Shown here piece after piece: positions 1-3,000 of a stretch of 22,930 nt of DNA. Location: positions 1-22,930 of the forward strand of contig JANRLW010000021.1 in NCBI GenBank assembly GCA_033762295.1, in the 5' to 3' direction. A program made the position numbers. The first letter of the stretch is position 1. Each line of letters opens with the position of its first letter. Origin of the DNA: Capsulimonadales bacterium. GTDB taxonomy: Bacteria > Armatimonadota > Armatimonadia > Armatimonadales > Armatimonadaceae.

Positions 1-3000
1 ACAGTGAACACAACCGAGCGCAATTCGGCGACGGCCAGCGCGTCGGCACGGCGCATCTGTGCGGAGGCTACCCCGCGCCGCGCTGTGCGCGTCCCGTTCA
101 CCTCCAGCGGTTGCTGGAAGAGAACCTCCGTGTCGGAGCCGCCCTGGACCCCACCCGTTAGGGCAGGGTTAAAGAGCGCGGTCGGGTTGGTCAGGTTGCC
201 TGCGGCACGGACCCCCTGGCGGGCGGCGGACACGTCGCGGACAGCGGCGGCGAGGCGGCGGTTGTTGGCGACGGCAACGCGCACCGCGTCGTCAACGGTC
301 AGCGACGGGGCCGTTGACGACGCCGCAGGCGTGTCGGGCGGCTGCTGTTGGTAGACCGATATGATGGCGGCGGGGGCGACCTCACCGCCGATGGGTGGAA
401 ACGGGAATGGCAATCTGCTCCTCCTGACGAAACGTGAAGTTGGTCGTCAGGCGGGAGGCATGAAAAGGGCGTGTACGAAAGCAACGCGCGGCAAAGTTCC
501 GACTCGGCTTGACGACCGTGATGACAACGGTTGTCAGGAGAGCGGCGGAGCGCGAGGAGAGGCGGGGGAAGCAGCGAAATCAGGCGTCGGAGGCGGACCA
601 CGTGCCTCGACGGGAGTGACATCGCGCTCGCCGACGAACGGCTCAGGGGCGTTCAGCGATGCCACAGGAGGCAAAGCGACGAGCAACGGGTACACAGACG
701 CTGGGGTGGAAACATCCACAGCGGGGGGTTGCTCGTCGGACGCACCGATGACCATGCGGCAGTCGCATGGCGCGGGGCACATAGTGGGCCTCGTCTCACC
801 CTTCGCAGACACCGCGCTGTCGGTTACCGATTCGCACTGCGAATCGCGTTCGACAGATGGCGCGTCACAGCAACAGAAGAACGGCGTGTACCCGCAAGCG
901 CGGCCCTCGCAATACCACGTCACCGCGACGCGAGCGAACGCCATCGGCATGGCAAAGGCCATGACGAGCAGGGTAGCCAAGAGCGGCTTCGGCATTCGAT
1001 AGCGATGGGTGCGGCGCACGGCTTCATTGTACCTCTGTCGCCCCCGCGCTACAACTGTATCTGCGGGGGCGGCACGGAGCGGGGTTGCGTCAGGAGCCGA
1101 CCGCCTCGGCGACGGCCTTCTCGACCTCCTTGAGATCGACCTTGCCCGCCCAGTGGCGGACGATCTGCCCGTCCTTGACCAAGATCACCGACGGGACAGC
1201 CTTCACCCCCCACTGCTGCCAGACAGGGGCATCCGCCGCCGCGTCGAGCAGGATCGGGTAGGTGTACTTGGTCTTCTGTTTGGCGAGGAACGGGCCGACC
1301 TTCTTGGCGCCTTCCTCGTCGATGGACACGCCCACGACGGAGAACTTGCCGCCCGCAGCGTACTTCTGGTGCAGGCGCTGGAGTTCGGGCATGGCCTTGA
1401 CGCACGGCCCGCACCACGTCGCCCAGAAGTCCACCAGCAGCACCTTGCCGCCCGCCGCAAGCCCCGTTAGCGTGACCTTCTCGCCCGCCGCCGCTGTCGC
1501 GGTCGGGAGCGAGAACGCAGGCGCGGGCCGCGGCACGGGGGCGGGCAGGTAGGCGTTGGGGTCCTTGACGAACGCCTCGACCTCCTTCTTCGAGCAGAAG
1601 TAGTAGGTCTTGCCCTTGTACGCGACGGCGCCTGCGGGCTTCTCCTCGCCGTGCTCCTCGCCGTTTTGCGAGCAGATGAAGCACTCCGCCTTCGCGGGCA
1701 GCTTGTCCTTCACGACGACGGCCTTTTCTTGGGCGTGTGCCGTCGGCGGCGGGGCCGCAAGGAGCAGGCCGAGGGCAACGCCGACCGCCGCCCCGAGCCT
1801 TCCCGTGTTATTGTTCATGTCGTTTTACCTTCTCAAAAGTTCTGCGCGAACGCGAAGCCGAGCCGCTTGTTGAACGCGGCGACGAGCGAGAACGTCCGCC
1901 CCCTGCGGTCCGACCACGAGAGCGTCGTGTGGCCGTACTTGCCGTCGCACATCGGCAGGAGCGTCACCGAGTCGGAGAGCGCGATGCTGGCCCCGAACGG
2001 GACCAGCAACTCGCGGCCCCATTCCGAGTAGGAGAGGCCGAGGTAGGGCGCGACACGCCCCCGCTCGCCGCCGATCTGCTTCTGCGCGGTGACGAAGTAG
2101 GCCATCCCCGACGGCGTCCCGATGCGGTCCGAGCTGAACCCCGCGATGATCCCTGCCCGCGTCTCCGTCTCGGTCTGGAGGAAGTAGTTGCCGATAGGGT
2201 TCAGCGTCTCGTCGGGCGCGTTCGGGTTGTACTCCAGGCCGAGTTGCAGGCGCGGGGCGACCCGCGCCGAGAGCGTGGTGCGCCAGCGCGGGCGCTCCTC
2301 GCGGGTGTTGACGTATCGCTGGCTGAACTGCCACTTGCCTTGAATGCCGCTCGCACGGAGCGGCGACCCCTCGCCAGGTCACCCCGTTCACGGGGGGAGA
2401 GTGGAGCGGAGCCGCTGCCGCTGGTCCTGCGCCCTGTCGGGCGCGGCGGCGGTGGGCGGCTTCTCCTGCTCCTGAGCGCGGGCGGCGGGCGCGGCGGACA
2501 GCAGCAGTGCCGCCGCAGCCGCGCCCGTCATGTAGCGGGAGAAAAACATCGGGTTCGGACCTACGCCTTTTTCCCCGCGTCGCTGGCGCAACAGGCGCAC
2601 CCACACGAGCAGGTGCAGGCGCCGCCAGCGCAACAGTCCGTCTGTGCGCAGCAGGCGCAGTCGTCGGGACAACAGGAGCAACACGCGGCTTCGTGAGCCA
2701 CAGCAGTCATGGAGGTCATGGTTCTTTCCTTTCGCTGGCCTTGTTCGTCTACTTGCCCGACACGAACGCGGCGATGTGGACCAGGGCGTCGGGGCGGACG
2801 CGGCAGTGGACGACCCGCCCGCGGCGCTCGGTGGCGATGAGGCCCGCCGCCCGCAGCTCATTCAGGTGGTGGGTCAGCGTGGACGGGGCGCAAGGCACCT
2901 GGCAGCGGATGCGGCAGGCGGTCACGCCGTCGCACTCGCCGCAGCACGTCCCGCTGTCGGTATCGTAGCCACAGGTCGGCCCGCAGCAGCGGATGCACTG

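Follow-up and report, generated by a model that had tools for sequence, protein, structure and literature searches.

The read-through gene and its neighbours

The window analysed here, a stretch of 22,930 nucleotides from a Capsulimonadales bacterium, contains on its minus strand, at 1833–2549, a reading frame of 238 aa that passes two in-frame TGA codons before it ends at its own stop, also a TGA (1833–1835). The first in-frame TGA lies at 2388–2390 (minus strand; selenocysteine 54, Sec54 or U54) and the second at 2379–2381 (minus strand; Sec57 or U57). When TGA is translated as U, both fall within the motif P-P-U-T-G-U-P-G-E-G. Residues 1–25 (2475–2549, minus strand) form, as judged by eye, a type I signal peptide that closes on A-R-A and is followed by Q26. 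A SECIS-like hairpin occupies 2346–2364 (minus strand), and a predicted 12-stranded beta-barrel domain, mature residues 48–213 with a C-terminal F, is encoded at 1836–2333 (minus strand).

A partner gene (1090–1818, minus strand) begins 14 nt past the stop of the barrel gene. Its product has a signal peptide (an N-terminal hydrophobic stretch, judged by eye), a YHS domain (C-x-x-C...F-C) and a TlpA-like thioredoxin fold with the sequence W-C-G-P-C. Pfam gave 67.2 bits for Redoxin, 63.5 for AhpC-TSA, 57.0 for Thioredoxin and, against a cut-off of 30.3, 31.8 for YHS. We use ‘TlpA-like’ for resemblance only, because the NCBIfam scores for TlpA (59.8 against 230 bits) and ResA (60.4 against 170) all lie below the cut-offs of these equivalog or subfamily models. 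In an alignment of 31 partner sequences, YHS and W-C-x-P-C are invariant, with YHS residues C17, C20 and C46 fixed.

Upstream of the barrel gene and on the same strand, at 2749–3078 (minus strand), is a gene for an ArsR/SmtB-family metalloregulator with a Cys-rich insert (Pfam HTH_20; NCBIfam NF033788, 63.2 against 55 bits); such a regulator also lies upstream of the paralog described below and of the barrel gene at 9 of 30 Armatimonadota loci. Between regulator and barrel gene, a 52-aa ORF (2561–2719, minus strand) encodes a metallothionein-like sequence with 18 Cys. It is a doubtful gene, with no Pfam or NCBIfam match and a GC3 of 0.75 vs 0.91–0.93 for its neighbours, and we rejected it as a conserved component when it found no match as a query in 30 further genomes of the family. 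No metal pump was found near the barrel operon within the window.

The preliminary description of this locus had proposed that one gene spans two in-frame TGA codons by read-through and has a paralog sharing its motif. Both proposals stand. GC3 is 0.91 on the 5′ side of the first TGA and 0.93 on the 3′ side of the second, matching the neighbouring genes, and the paralog (C35:38849–39538, minus strand) has an identical motif with synonymous differences on both flanks. In alignments of 31 and of 89 distinct sequences, the flanking codons are invariant at positions 1 and 2 and vary at position 3, while both TGA codons are fixed; each TGA column is invariant over the 89. All 30 Armatimonadota loci that were fetched, one of which (L023) is truncated by a contig end, keep the motif in frame (stop-T-G-stop-P-G-E-G), with a Met and a hydrophobic signal-like stretch on its 5′ side and 180–186 codons on its 3′ side. 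The hydrophobic stretch of related loci has an A-x-A-like end upstream of the motif. A scan of GTDB species genomes with a 16-row alignment as query gave U-x-x-U-P-G-E-G in frame in each of the 80 best loci. These comparisons show that 1833–2549 is a single predicted gene whose frame runs on through both TGA codons, and that gene callers split it in error.

A single hairpin and the decoding of two UGA codons

The hairpin at 2346–2364, recognized by covariation and RNAalifold, has a 7-bp stem, GCCGCUC/GAGCGGC, and the loop CGUGC. It begins 15 nt after the second TGA, so that its loop begins 21 nt after that codon and 30 nt after the first. Over 31 distinct sequences, 97.2% of cells were paired, with compensatory changes in four of seven pairs, and none of 500 shuffles scored as high; slid controls on this alignment gave 43.8–56.2%. 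Over 89 distinct sequences, the corresponding values were 94.4%, five of seven pairs and again 0 of 500, the slid controls over both alignments spanning 42.5–57.5%. RNAalifold recovered the same structure. The MFE of the hairpin is −12.4 kcal/mol. The preliminary description had reported this hairpin with an invariant G and U in the loop; its length, position, pairing and covariation are borne out, and of the two loop bases only the G is invariant, the base that follows being U or G.

The published bSECIS consensus specifies a loop of 3–9 nt, a stem of 4–16 bp, a distance of 16–37 nt from the UGA and an MFE of −7.5 or lower, with a G within the first two loop positions and then G or U. At every point the hairpin agrees: its loop has 5 nt and its stem 7 bp, the loop G precedes U or G, the distances are 21 and 30 nt, and the MFE is −12.4. 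An Rfam scan of 2250–2450 at E up to 10 returned two chance-level matches and no SECIS family.

Homologues that carry Cys are informative here. Ten loci, together with library proteins, have C-A-G-C-A-G-E-A exactly where the Sec motif would lie, and two loci combine one Sec with one Cys, as U-A-G-C (L056) and C-P-G-U (L055); the Sec/Cys pairs of homologues claimed in the preliminary description were therefore confirmed. At the hairpin columns of the ten Cys-form loci, 44 of 70 cells are paired and the G-U/G loop is absent. L056 retains the first TGA only and still has the hairpin at the same place, and in L055 the hairpin lies 4 nt nearer. We conclude that covariation and agreement with the consensus show a predicted SelB-type SECIS, a single one that would direct both UGA codons, nine bases apart.

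The host genome encodes a tRNA-Sec (69.9 bits; SeC with anticodon tca in ARAGORN), SelA, a SelB wing domain and SelD, the gene for SelD containing a TGA of its own. TGA is the commonest stop codon of the genome, and we regard it as the normal stop because it closes 1403 of 2832 ORFs of at least 400 codons; as it also ends the barrel gene itself, its use as a sense codon genome-wide is excluded.

A rival reading is that one or both UGA codons specify Cys or another residue, either through a SelB-dependent tRNA-ReC or as a selenium-dependent mixture. According to a 2026 hydrogenase paper, tRNA-ReC decodes UGA as Cys and uses a SECIS, tRNA-ReC-like genes occur in five of five Armatimonadota genomes with UXXU hydrogenases, and either UGA of a UXXU motif might be read as Cys; moreover, the natural C-A-G-C clade tolerates Cys at both positions of the barrel protein. 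Nevertheless, Rfam RF01852 and ARAGORN found no second tRNA-Sec-like or tRNA-ReC gene in all 132 contigs of this genome, which is 94.5% complete; a second Rfam match proved to be an ordinary tRNA-Ser, and ARAGORN listed one SeC tRNA and one ordinary Cys tRNA. Furthermore, TGA stands at both positions in 80 of the 80 best relatives, even though one scan pattern was designed for Cys. Were Cys the residue inserted, this would be hard to explain, because TGC and TGT need no special machinery. We therefore think decoding as Cys improbable, and infer that Sec rather than Cys would be inserted at each UGA.

That there is no read-through at all, with a pair of unconnected short genes or a degenerate pseudogene in the region and a hairpin that merely follows from protein or GC constraints, is scarcely credible. 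Gene callers do divide the region, most entries in the public protein library are C-terminal fragments, next to a 98-aa N-terminal piece (P0020), and long open frames and hairpins arise easily because the genome is GC-rich. Against this, the upstream piece would consist of signal peptide and linker only, the downstream piece would be a barrel lacking any signal peptide, 110 loci from many phyla retain the frame and the two TGA codons while synonymous sites vary, pairing is preserved where the residues encoded over the hairpin differ between clades, and the Cys forms are single unbroken genes. Sequence comparison argues strongly that the predicted product is a selenoprotein with two Sec three residues apart.

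The barrel fold and the spread of the family

The barrel domain was modelled with AlphaFold2 and compared with known structures by Foldseek and VIA-align. The AlphaFold2 model has 12 main strands (pLDDT 85.9, pTM 0.80), with the U-T-G-U-P-G-E-G segment about 16 residues ahead of the first strand; the Sec pair segment itself is modelled at low confidence (pLDDT 53–57). The model aligns with solved 12-stranded outer-membrane barrels at Z 13–16, in keeping with the fold assigned at the outset. Its invariant polar residues, in mature numbering, are R53, R65, E81, D116-R117, D177 and H182, among which R53, R65, E81 and H182 appear by eye to face the lumen of the modelled barrel. The host encodes Omp85/BamA proteins (PF01103 at 118.3 and 112.5 bits and a weaker match at 28.4, cut-off 24 bits). 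Signal peptide and model together show a predicted protein that would be exported and would fold as a 12-stranded outer-membrane beta-barrel.

No Pfam family was found for the whole protein (E up to 0.01) or for the barrel part (E up to 1), NCBIfam gave no match, and the barrel of the Cys forms likewise matched no Pfam or NCBIfam family. The ESM Atlas, queried with the Cys form P0015, returned as nearest clusters a ‘putative outer membrane protein with beta-barrel domain’ and ‘hypothetical’ proteins, none with a named function. The family is also not among the 119 families in Table 1 of the 2026 selenoprotein catalogue, and the earlier claim that it is undescribed agrees with these results. 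We found no description of it in the full-text literature, although supplementary candidate lists may already contain it, nor any of a YHS and thioredoxin fusion paired with an outer-membrane barrel.

A protein search of 401 Armatimonadota genomes reproduced the counts first given for the family: 66 genomes have a match, and 54, counted from the search table, have a strong match with two (once three) in-frame TGA codons. The suggestion that the family is spread through Armatimonadota is correct in this respect, but it is not confined there. Species-level genomes contain at least 529 loci with the barrel gene, distributed over many phyla, and among the 80 best are loci from Poribacteria, Eisenbacteria, Acidobacteriota, Latescibacterota, Gemmatimonadota and Bacteroidota. 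Similarly, the U-T-G-U described as invariant is so in the set of 30 Armatimonadota loci, whereas outside that set the motif is U-[SVAMP]-[GASL]-U. In public protein libraries its members appear either in fragments or with W where the TGA codons stand. The Cys forms make up one clade nested among Sec forms. Sec appears to be the dominant, and possibly the ancestral, state at both positions, with Cys marking a single derived clade; such a pattern would be the reverse of what is usual in selenoprotein families.

The partner gene directly follows the barrel gene in 21 of 30 Armatimonadota loci, as had been reported, two of the nine exceptions ending at a contig edge, and in 56 of the 80 best GTDB loci. 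It is absent within 3 kb in 20 of 78 testable loci, including all 14 from Poribacteria. Members of the Cys clade instead have the barrel joined to two or three YHS/TRASH domains, and at seven of ten of their loci the gene downstream encodes a thioredoxin domain only; YHS is likewise fused upstream in one Sec form (L075).

Recognition of the family would add a widespread two-Sec member to the selenoprotein catalogue and bring the kinds of outer-membrane selenoprotein to three. Gene callers regularly miss selenoprotein genes, and this is an instance with at least 529 loci. The gene would also offer a clean natural test case for one SECIS, at 21 and 30 nt, serving two nearby UGA codons. It would further suggest that an outer-membrane barrel works with a YHS metal-binding domain and a thioredoxin-fold protein of the periplasm, a partnership not described before.

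A proposed role in metal handling and comparison with known systems

Of 16 loci viewed widely, five adjoin P1B ATPase genes, three of them Cu-type and three Zn/Cd/Pb-type, with one of each at L072. The gene order at L070 is csoR-like, copA, a 154-aa ORF, barrel and tlpA-like, with a YtkA-like gene in the neighbourhood; at L068, the order is CusA/CzcA RND, barrel and ATPase; and TolC-like and adaptor genes follow the barrel and partner pair at L063. Outside Armatimonadota, no metal theme was apparent around the 15 loci scanned, where only the pair of barrel and YHS-TlpA genes is conserved. No cytochrome oxidase or Sco gene was seen in the neighbourhoods scanned.

The preliminary description had left open metal or chalcogen handling. 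The efflux neighbours in some loci (P1B ATPases, CusA/CzcA, CsoR-like) favour metal over chalcogen. The metal is not fixed, because such neighbours appear in 5 of 16 views only and are split between Cu-type and Zn/Cd/Pb-type pumps. From this context we infer that the most likely role of the barrel, shared with its thioredoxin-like neighbour, is to deal with toxic soft metals, copper for example.

On balance we lean towards a model in which a Sec barrel, made from two UGA codons with one SECIS, would carry a periplasmic diselenolate metal site that is fed by the YHS-thioredoxin partner and placed under ArsR control. The N-terminus of the barrel would face the periplasm, and for that reason the Sec pair would lie at, or dip into, the periplasmic mouth. 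There it may form a diselenolate site of very high affinity for thiophilic metal ions, with Cu(I) as the leading candidate and Cd, Zn, Pb, Hg and Ag as alternatives. The periplasmic protein encoded downstream would exchange metal with this site, as donor or acceptor, by means of its Cys-rich YHS domain, while its thioredoxin-fold W-C-G-P-C domain would maintain the Sec pair in the reduced state or restore it to that state. With its invariant polar residues, the barrel may then export the metal across the outer membrane, or at a minimum keep the site anchored there. Rising metal would lead the upstream Cys-rich ArsR/SmtB repressor to let expression switch on.

One step of this model may be unfavourable. 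Diselenides have very low redox potentials, and reduction of the Sec pair by a TlpA-like thiol protein could for that reason be difficult.

An alternative is a redox device, in which the Sec pair would alternate between its diselenide and diselenol forms with electrons from the TlpA-like protein, and the barrel would serve as an anchor or substrate channel; possible substrates at the outer membrane would be peroxides, lipid hydroperoxides, wrong disulfides, Cu(II), selenite or tellurite. Consistent with this, the partner has an AhpC-TSA/Redoxin-type thioredoxin fold with W-C-G-P-C, most known bacterial selenoproteins are, according to the 2026 review that contains the catalogue, redox proteins with UxxC or CxxU, and beyond Armatimonadota the pair of genes occurs by itself, with no metal genes around it. 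On the other hand, YHS, a Cys-rich metal-binding module, is conserved in the partner and is joined to the barrel in two or three copies in the Cys clade; the regulators sense metal (ArsR/SmtB at this locus, CsoR-like at others); heavy-metal pumps adjoin 5 of 16 loci; and we found no peroxidase-type residue pattern in a barrel that matches no Pfam or NCBIfam family. We consider a purely redox function unlikely, if still worth weighing.

Metal might also move inwards. TlpA works with Sco and CoxB. A barrel that imports a scarce thiophilic metal, with the Sec pair capturing it and YHS-TlpA inserting it into cuproenzymes, would suit a TlpA-like partner with a YHS domain, the YtkA-like gene near L070 and the absence of efflux genes from many loci. 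However, ArsR/SmtB and CsoR-like repressors, the regulators linked here, generally come off the DNA when metal is high; the pumps beside the barrel gene (P1B ATPases, CusA/CzcA) are exporters; and the scanned neighbourhoods lack cytochrome oxidase and Sco. Uptake or delivery is distinctly unlikely on this evidence.

Returning to metal handling by a diselenolate site, its broadest form would be an unrecognized route for thiophilic metals, in which a 12-stranded channel carries a periplasmic diselenolate that is loaded by YHS and reduced by thioredoxin, encoded in a two-gene cassette that crosses phyla, with Sec dominant and Cys derived and one SECIS for two UGA codons. We put this forward tentatively, as a possibility that we would not yet bet on. 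If the metal role is true, diderm bacteria would have a new way to clear or move copper-like metals over the outer membrane, and selenium would serve metal affinity rather than catalysis.

In shape, the barrel is closest to other 12-stranded barrels: the COG4313 channel (4rl8; Z 16.0), FapF (5o65; 15.7), the autotransporters EstA, NalP and AIDA-I (13–15) and KdgM/NanC (13.5–15.5, the upper value for KdgM), with rmsd 2.6–3.1 Å over 152–169 residues. With the plugged barrels, the alignment begins at model residues 25–31, within the Sec pair segment. Strand number and shape are shared, but identity is 7–14% and these proteins have neither a CxxC/UxxU motif nor a thioredoxin partner. Membership in KdgM/NanC, FapF or COG4313 was rejected, as there is no Pfam or NCBIfam match and the fold alone is common; a shared barrel fold shows no function.

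PcoB/CopB (PDB 7pge) is alike in the proposed model, as a small barrel with a flexible N-terminal metal-binding extension from metal-resistance operons. The PcoB extension is rich in Met and His, so that the ligands would be Met/His there vs Sec/Cys here. Membership in PcoB/CopB was rejected in the absence of a Pfam CopB match. Among structural matches, 7pge ranks 29th (Z 8.0, rmsd 4.7 Å), with Z 13–16 for other barrels. The partner resembles TlpA, ResA and ScsC in its thioredoxin fold with W-C-x-P-C, to which an N-terminal YHS/TRASH-type domain is added, and its TlpA and ResA scores are far below the cut-offs.

Among known selenoproteins, the 2026 catalogue includes two other outer-membrane beta-barrels, a TonB-dependent receptor (FCYXU) and GSU2204 (MtrB/PioB-family). 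Both are large, belong to known families and carry one Sec each, whereas the present barrel is small, with 12 strands, two Sec and no Pfam match. The same catalogue has as UxxU entries a Prx-like thiol:disulfide oxidoreductase (UxxC/UxxU), NF041115 (HMA-like), an FmdB-family UxxU protein and the UXXU group 4 [NiFeSe] hydrogenases. In NCBIfam, the barrel protein has no match to the metal-binding (seleno)protein model NF041115; separately, this model matches the HMA domains of neighbouring CopA-like ATPases, below its cut-off. Like the UxxU proteins so catalogued, the barrel protein has two Sec, three apart, that replace the Cys pair of a CxxC site for redox chemistry or metal, and one downstream SECIS-like hairpin; for the hydrogenases, that one hairpin serves both UGA codons is also proposed in the 2026 hydrogenase paper. 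Unlike them, it is a predicted 12-stranded barrel of the outer membrane, bears its motif in an N-terminal extension and has a conserved partner of its own.

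The barrel gene, a probable two-Sec read-through gene

The barrel gene (1833–2549, minus strand) forms a single 238-codon frame when two in-frame TGA codons, at residue 54 (2388–2390, minus strand) and residue 57 (2379–2381, minus strand), are read through in translation, and it is terminated by a third TGA. Translation with table 11 breaks it in two: the first piece, 53 codons long, contains the signal peptide, and the second, of 181 codons, lacks one. The same two kinds of pieces are present in the public protein library, as P0020 and many C-terminal fragments. GC3 is 0.91 on the 5′ side of the first TGA and 0.93 on the 3′ side of the second, equal to that of the flanking genes. 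The read-through protein opens with a sequence that, judged by eye, resembles a signal peptide (M-F-F-S-R-Y-M-T-G-A-A-A-A-A-L-L-L-S-A-A-P-A-A-R-A), followed by a Pro/Ala/Gln-rich linker, the motif P-P-U-T-G-U-P-G-E-G, about 180 residues and a terminal F.

When 401 genomes of the phylum were searched, 66 had a match, and in 54 genomes the match contained two (once three) in-frame TGA codons, at identities down to 35%, which reproduces the counts of the preliminary description. In 30 of 30 loci fetched from this search the motif stop-T-G-stop-P-G-E-G lies in frame, preceded by a Met plus a hydrophobic stretch and followed by 180–186 codons, one locus being truncated by the end of its contig; the earlier proposal of one gene running through two TGA codons is thereby borne out. 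At the nucleotide level the aligned P, T, G, P, G, E and G codons are fixed at positions 1 and 2 and free at position 3, while both TGA codons are unchanging throughout, the pattern of a codon without synonyms. Genome-wide sense reading of TGA can be ruled out, since TGA is the usual stop in the source genome, ending 1403 of 2832 ORFs of at least 400 codons.

A hairpin, GCCGCUC-CGUGC-GAGCGGC (2346–2364, minus strand), starts 15 nt after the second TGA. Across 31 distinct sequences its 7-bp stem is paired in 97.2% of cells, with changes on both sides at four of seven pairs, and none of 500 shuffles matched either the paired fraction or the covariation score (slid controls, 43.8–56.2% paired). 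When the set was widened to 89 distinct sequences from many phyla, 94.4% of cells were paired, five of seven pairs had both-side changes, and again 0/500 shuffles matched either measure (slid controls, 42.5–57.5%); nearly all losses of pairing fell at the outermost pair. RNAalifold recovered the same helix. From clade to clade the stem encodes different residues (S-P-L-R-A-S, A-P-L-R-G-S, F-L-G-S-G, L-L-G-A-S), with changes that preserve pairing. In the loop, base 2 is G throughout and base 3 is U or G, so that the stem, its position and its covariation stand as first described but the U following the loop G is not invariant. In the same columns of ten loci of the Cys form, in which C-A-G-C occupies the Sec positions, 44 of 70 cells are paired and the G-U/G loop is absent.

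The bacterial SECIS consensus, as set out in a 2026 review of selenoprotein families, has a loop of 3–9 nt with G at position 1 or 2 and G or U after it, a stem of 4–16 bp, a UGA-to-loop spacing of 16–37 nt and an MFE no higher than −7.5 kcal/mol. The hairpin agrees with every one of these points for both UGA codons (spacings of 21 and 30 nt; MFE −12.4 kcal/mol). Two variant loci bear on its use: L056 has the motif U-A-G-C with the hairpin in its usual position, where it would therefore serve the upstream codon alone, and in L055, whose motif is C-P-G-U, it lies 4 nt closer. No Rfam family matched the hairpin region.

The source genome contains one tRNA-Sec (69.9 bits; called SeC, anticodon tca, by ARAGORN), a SelB wing domain within a 707-codon frame, SelA, and a SelD with its own in-frame TGA. 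This SelD (contig C128, 21777–22718) is itself a selenoprotein, with the sequence V-R-C-A-G-U-A-S-K, and a hairpin, GGGCC-GUC-GGCCC, begins 12 nt past its TGA. Insertion of Cys in place of Sec at one or both UGA codons is an improbable reading, and precedent for it comes from a 2026 paper on UXXU hydrogenases, which reports tRNA-ReC, specifying Cys at SECIS-directed UGA, in five of five Armatimonadota genomes with the UXXU motif; tRNA-ReC was not found in the source genome by Rfam, or by ARAGORN over all contigs of an assembly that is 94.5% complete. That the codons are not read through at all is the least likely reading, set against the frame kept at every fetched locus and the covarying stem behind it. 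Judged on sequence, the barrel protein is very probably a true two-Sec selenoprotein.

Sec and Cys forms across phyla

A profile-free search of 1.84 billion representatives gave 145 matches at E ≤ 0.001, mostly fragments. The full-length ones carry C-A-G-C-A-G-E-A in place of U-T-G-U-P-G-E-G, in accordance with the Sec/Cys pairing noted earlier, and many Cys forms are 379–500 aa long and carry, after the signal peptide and ahead of C-A-G-C, two or three YHS/TRASH domains. Two library entries have W at Sec positions (P0014, C-V-G-W-P-G-E-G; P0086, T-W-S-G-W-P-G-E-G), presumably because gene callers translated TGA under a TGA=Trp code; such residues are a pitfall for inferring taxonomy or genetic code.

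A scan of GTDB, with one genome per species, gave at least 598 stretches and at least 529 confirmed relatives, the best 80 of which were analysed. By record title these 80 come from Armatimonadota, Poribacteria, Eisenbacteria, Thermoanaerobaculia, Holophagales and other Acidobacteriota, Latescibacterota, Gemmatimonadota and Cytophagia; the family, first described as spread through Armatimonadota, is so spread, and its range is wider. All of the best 80 have U-x-x-U-P-G-E-G, divided among U-S-G-U (38), U-T-G-U (27), U-S-A-U (9), U-V-G-U (3), U-A-G-U (2) and U-M-G-U (1), and remoter Armatimonadota members have U-P-S-U and U-P-L-U. Constancy of U-T-G-U, claimed at the outset, thus holds for the 30 fetched loci, but elsewhere the residues between the Sec positions vary.

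A maximum-likelihood tree of 63 barrel domains, from which L056 and three Cys loci not caught by the selection pattern were left out, places the 14 Cys forms in a single clade (100/100) inside the Sec forms and the 20 rows from other phyla in another (100/96). Sec is the commoner state and occupies most of the tree, which is rooted only at its midpoint. Several loci titled Latescibacterota and Gemmatimonadota (L136 and L147, also L142, L148 and L152) have near-identical barrel genes, with branch lengths of 0.04–0.06, and share as neighbours an upstream Hydantoinase_B gene, ankyrin-repeat genes and an amidohydrolase; either a larger block was transferred recently or the taxon labels of the assemblies are inconsistent.

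Predicted barrel, partner gene and neighbourhood

AlphaFold2, run on a 55-row alignment, predicted 12 main strands over mature residues 48–212 (pLDDT 85.9, pTM 0.80), with the first 45 residues, including the Sec pair, at pLDDT 53–57. The best Foldseek matches were FapF, KdgM, NanC and designed 12-stranded barrels. An independent structure search returned a COG4313 channel (Z 16.0), FapF (15.7), KdgM (15.5), autotransporter barrels (13–15), and LpxR and NanC (13.5–13.8), with PcoB at only Z 8.0. The 12-stranded outer-membrane barrel proposed at first is thus upheld by the model, by Z values of 13–16 to solved barrels and by the terminal F, and the product is on this modelling an exported protein of that kind. 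Omp85/BamA genes are present in the source genome. By eye, the invariant or nearly invariant residues R53, R65, E81 and H182 (mature numbering) fall, from strand alternation, on the polar strand face, and D116-R117 and D177-G178 lie in loops. Alignments to plugged or threaded barrels begin at model residues 25–31, within the low-confidence segment, a hint that the Sec-bearing N-terminal segment may enter the barrel lumen.

The partner gene (1090–1818, minus strand), 14 nt after the barrel gene, encodes a protein whose signal peptide is followed by a YHS domain and a thioredoxin-fold domain that contains W-C-G-P-C. First in the minus-strand gene order stands an ArsR/SmtB regulator with a Cys-rich insert (2749–3078, minus strand), and the paralogous operon on contig C35 has motif, regulator and partner all alike. 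The insert reads C-I-R-C-C-G-P-T-C-G-Y ... C-C-G-E-C ... C-R-I-R-C-Q-V-P-C, and was noted together with that of the paralog's regulator; sensors of this type usually have a short metal site at this place. Between regulator and barrel gene lies a 52-codon ORF with 18 Cys (2561–2719, minus strand). A purine-rich stretch precedes the ATG of this candidate gene, which looks metallothionein-like. Its GC3 is 0.75, against 0.91–0.93 in the adjoining genes; it matched no family, and as a query it gave no match in 30 other genomes of the family. About 3 kb upstream of the operon an 833-codon open frame (6331–8832, minus strand), with a serine-recombinase (Resolvase) domain in its middle, may mark the border of a mobile element. 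Among the genes of the window nothing beyond the operon is metal-related.

As initially reported, 21 of the 30 loci from Armatimonadota have a YHS and thioredoxin-fold gene immediately 3′; among the remaining nine, two are cut off by a contig edge. Among the best 80 of at least 529 relatives, a thioredoxin-fold match lies 3′ of the barrel gene in 56, two more have the start of a YHS domain at a contig end, two could not be assessed, and 20 have no partner within 3 kb. The last include all 14 Poribacteria loci (e.g. L096, L105 and L112), whose motif is U-S-A-U or U-S-G-U; in the two that were scanned, L096 and L105, the barrel gene lies between GFO/IDH/MocA oxidoreductase and sigma-70-like genes. 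Three YHS cysteines and W-C-x-P-C are invariant in 31 partner sequences. Barrels with fused YHS are followed by a gene that encodes a thioredoxin domain only (7 of 10 Cys loci). Fusion is not restricted to the Cys clade: in a Sec form with U-P-S-U-P-G-E-G (L075, 9335–10252, plus strand, G048:C3) a fused YHS domain precedes the barrel in the same reading frame. YHS is thus carried by the barrel in some lineages and by the thioredoxin-fold protein in others, and this domain swapping is the strongest sign that the three parts cooperate.

Five of 16 Armatimonadota loci, seen in views of about 9 kb, adjoin P1B ATPases. The order at L070 is a CsoR-like repressor, a Cu-type ATPase with an HMA domain, a 154-codon ORF without family matches (8817–9278, plus strand, G315:C8), barrel, partner, DUF305 and a YtkA-like gene. 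An RND pump precedes the pair at L060; downstream, past an unassigned ORF on the opposite strand, come a CsoR-like gene and a Cu-type ATPase. L072 adjoins both a YHS/HMBD Cu-type and a Zn/Cd/Pb-type ATPase, L068 runs from a CusA/CzcA RND pump through the barrel to a Zn/Cd/Pb-type ATPase, and L074 adjoins a Zn/Cd/Pb-type ATPase. Outside these five, L063 has TolC-like and adaptor genes past the pair. Across 15 loci of other phyla the two-gene pair is the sole recurring element, in differing surroundings.

Proposed role and comparison with known systems

The analysis establishes a read-through gene with a SECIS hairpin, whose modelled product is an exported 12-stranded outer-membrane barrel with the Sec pair in its N-terminal extension, and beside it a metalloregulator and a YHS/thioredoxin partner that is conserved. 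We propose that the N-terminus of the barrel protein is periplasmic, which fits the fused YHS domains, the exported partner and the even number of strands, a periplasmic N-terminus being the normal topology of an even-stranded barrel. The Sec pair would then lie at the periplasmic mouth as a putative diselenolate site that binds thiophilic metals, the YHS domain would hand over or take the metal, the thioredoxin-fold domain would hold the Sec pair reduced, and the barrel would be the metal's exit. Cu(I) is the first choice because of the CsoR-like, CopA and YHS context; given the Zn/Cd/Pb-type pumps at other loci, other soft metals are open candidates.

A purely redox role for barrel and partner, less likely, would draw on the invariant W-C-x-P-C; against it stand the invariant YHS cysteines, the regulator and the pumps, and we consider it probable that the system handles soft metals. 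Metal uptake or delivery in place of efflux is less likely still, and the neighbouring pumps, which are exporters, speak against it. The full proposal, ending in efflux of a soft metal, is the reading that we favour, by rather less than we favour soft-metal handling as such. The original finding and its interpretation are sustained, the range being broader and the functional lead sharper.

No Pfam or NCBIfam model matched the barrel, and the family is missing from Table 1 of the 2026 review, which covers 119 families. Full-text literature searches gave no description of it, supplementary lists, where it might already appear, being outside their scope; the main texts of the deep-Sep and BSepDB papers mention no barrel or outer-membrane protein. 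PcoB resembles the barrel protein in proposed mode of action, but the barrel protein matched no sequence model of the PcoB family. Two-Sec U-x-x-U motifs, and the proposal that one SECIS serves both codons, have been published for other families, in the 2026 review and the 2026 hydrogenase paper, and two other families of barrels are known to include outer-membrane selenoproteins (2026 review); the present family belongs to neither group. As a system it is of a known kind; the family itself is new, and unusual in its two Sec residues, its outer-membrane site, its excess of Sec over Cys and its domain-swapping YHS/thioredoxin partner.
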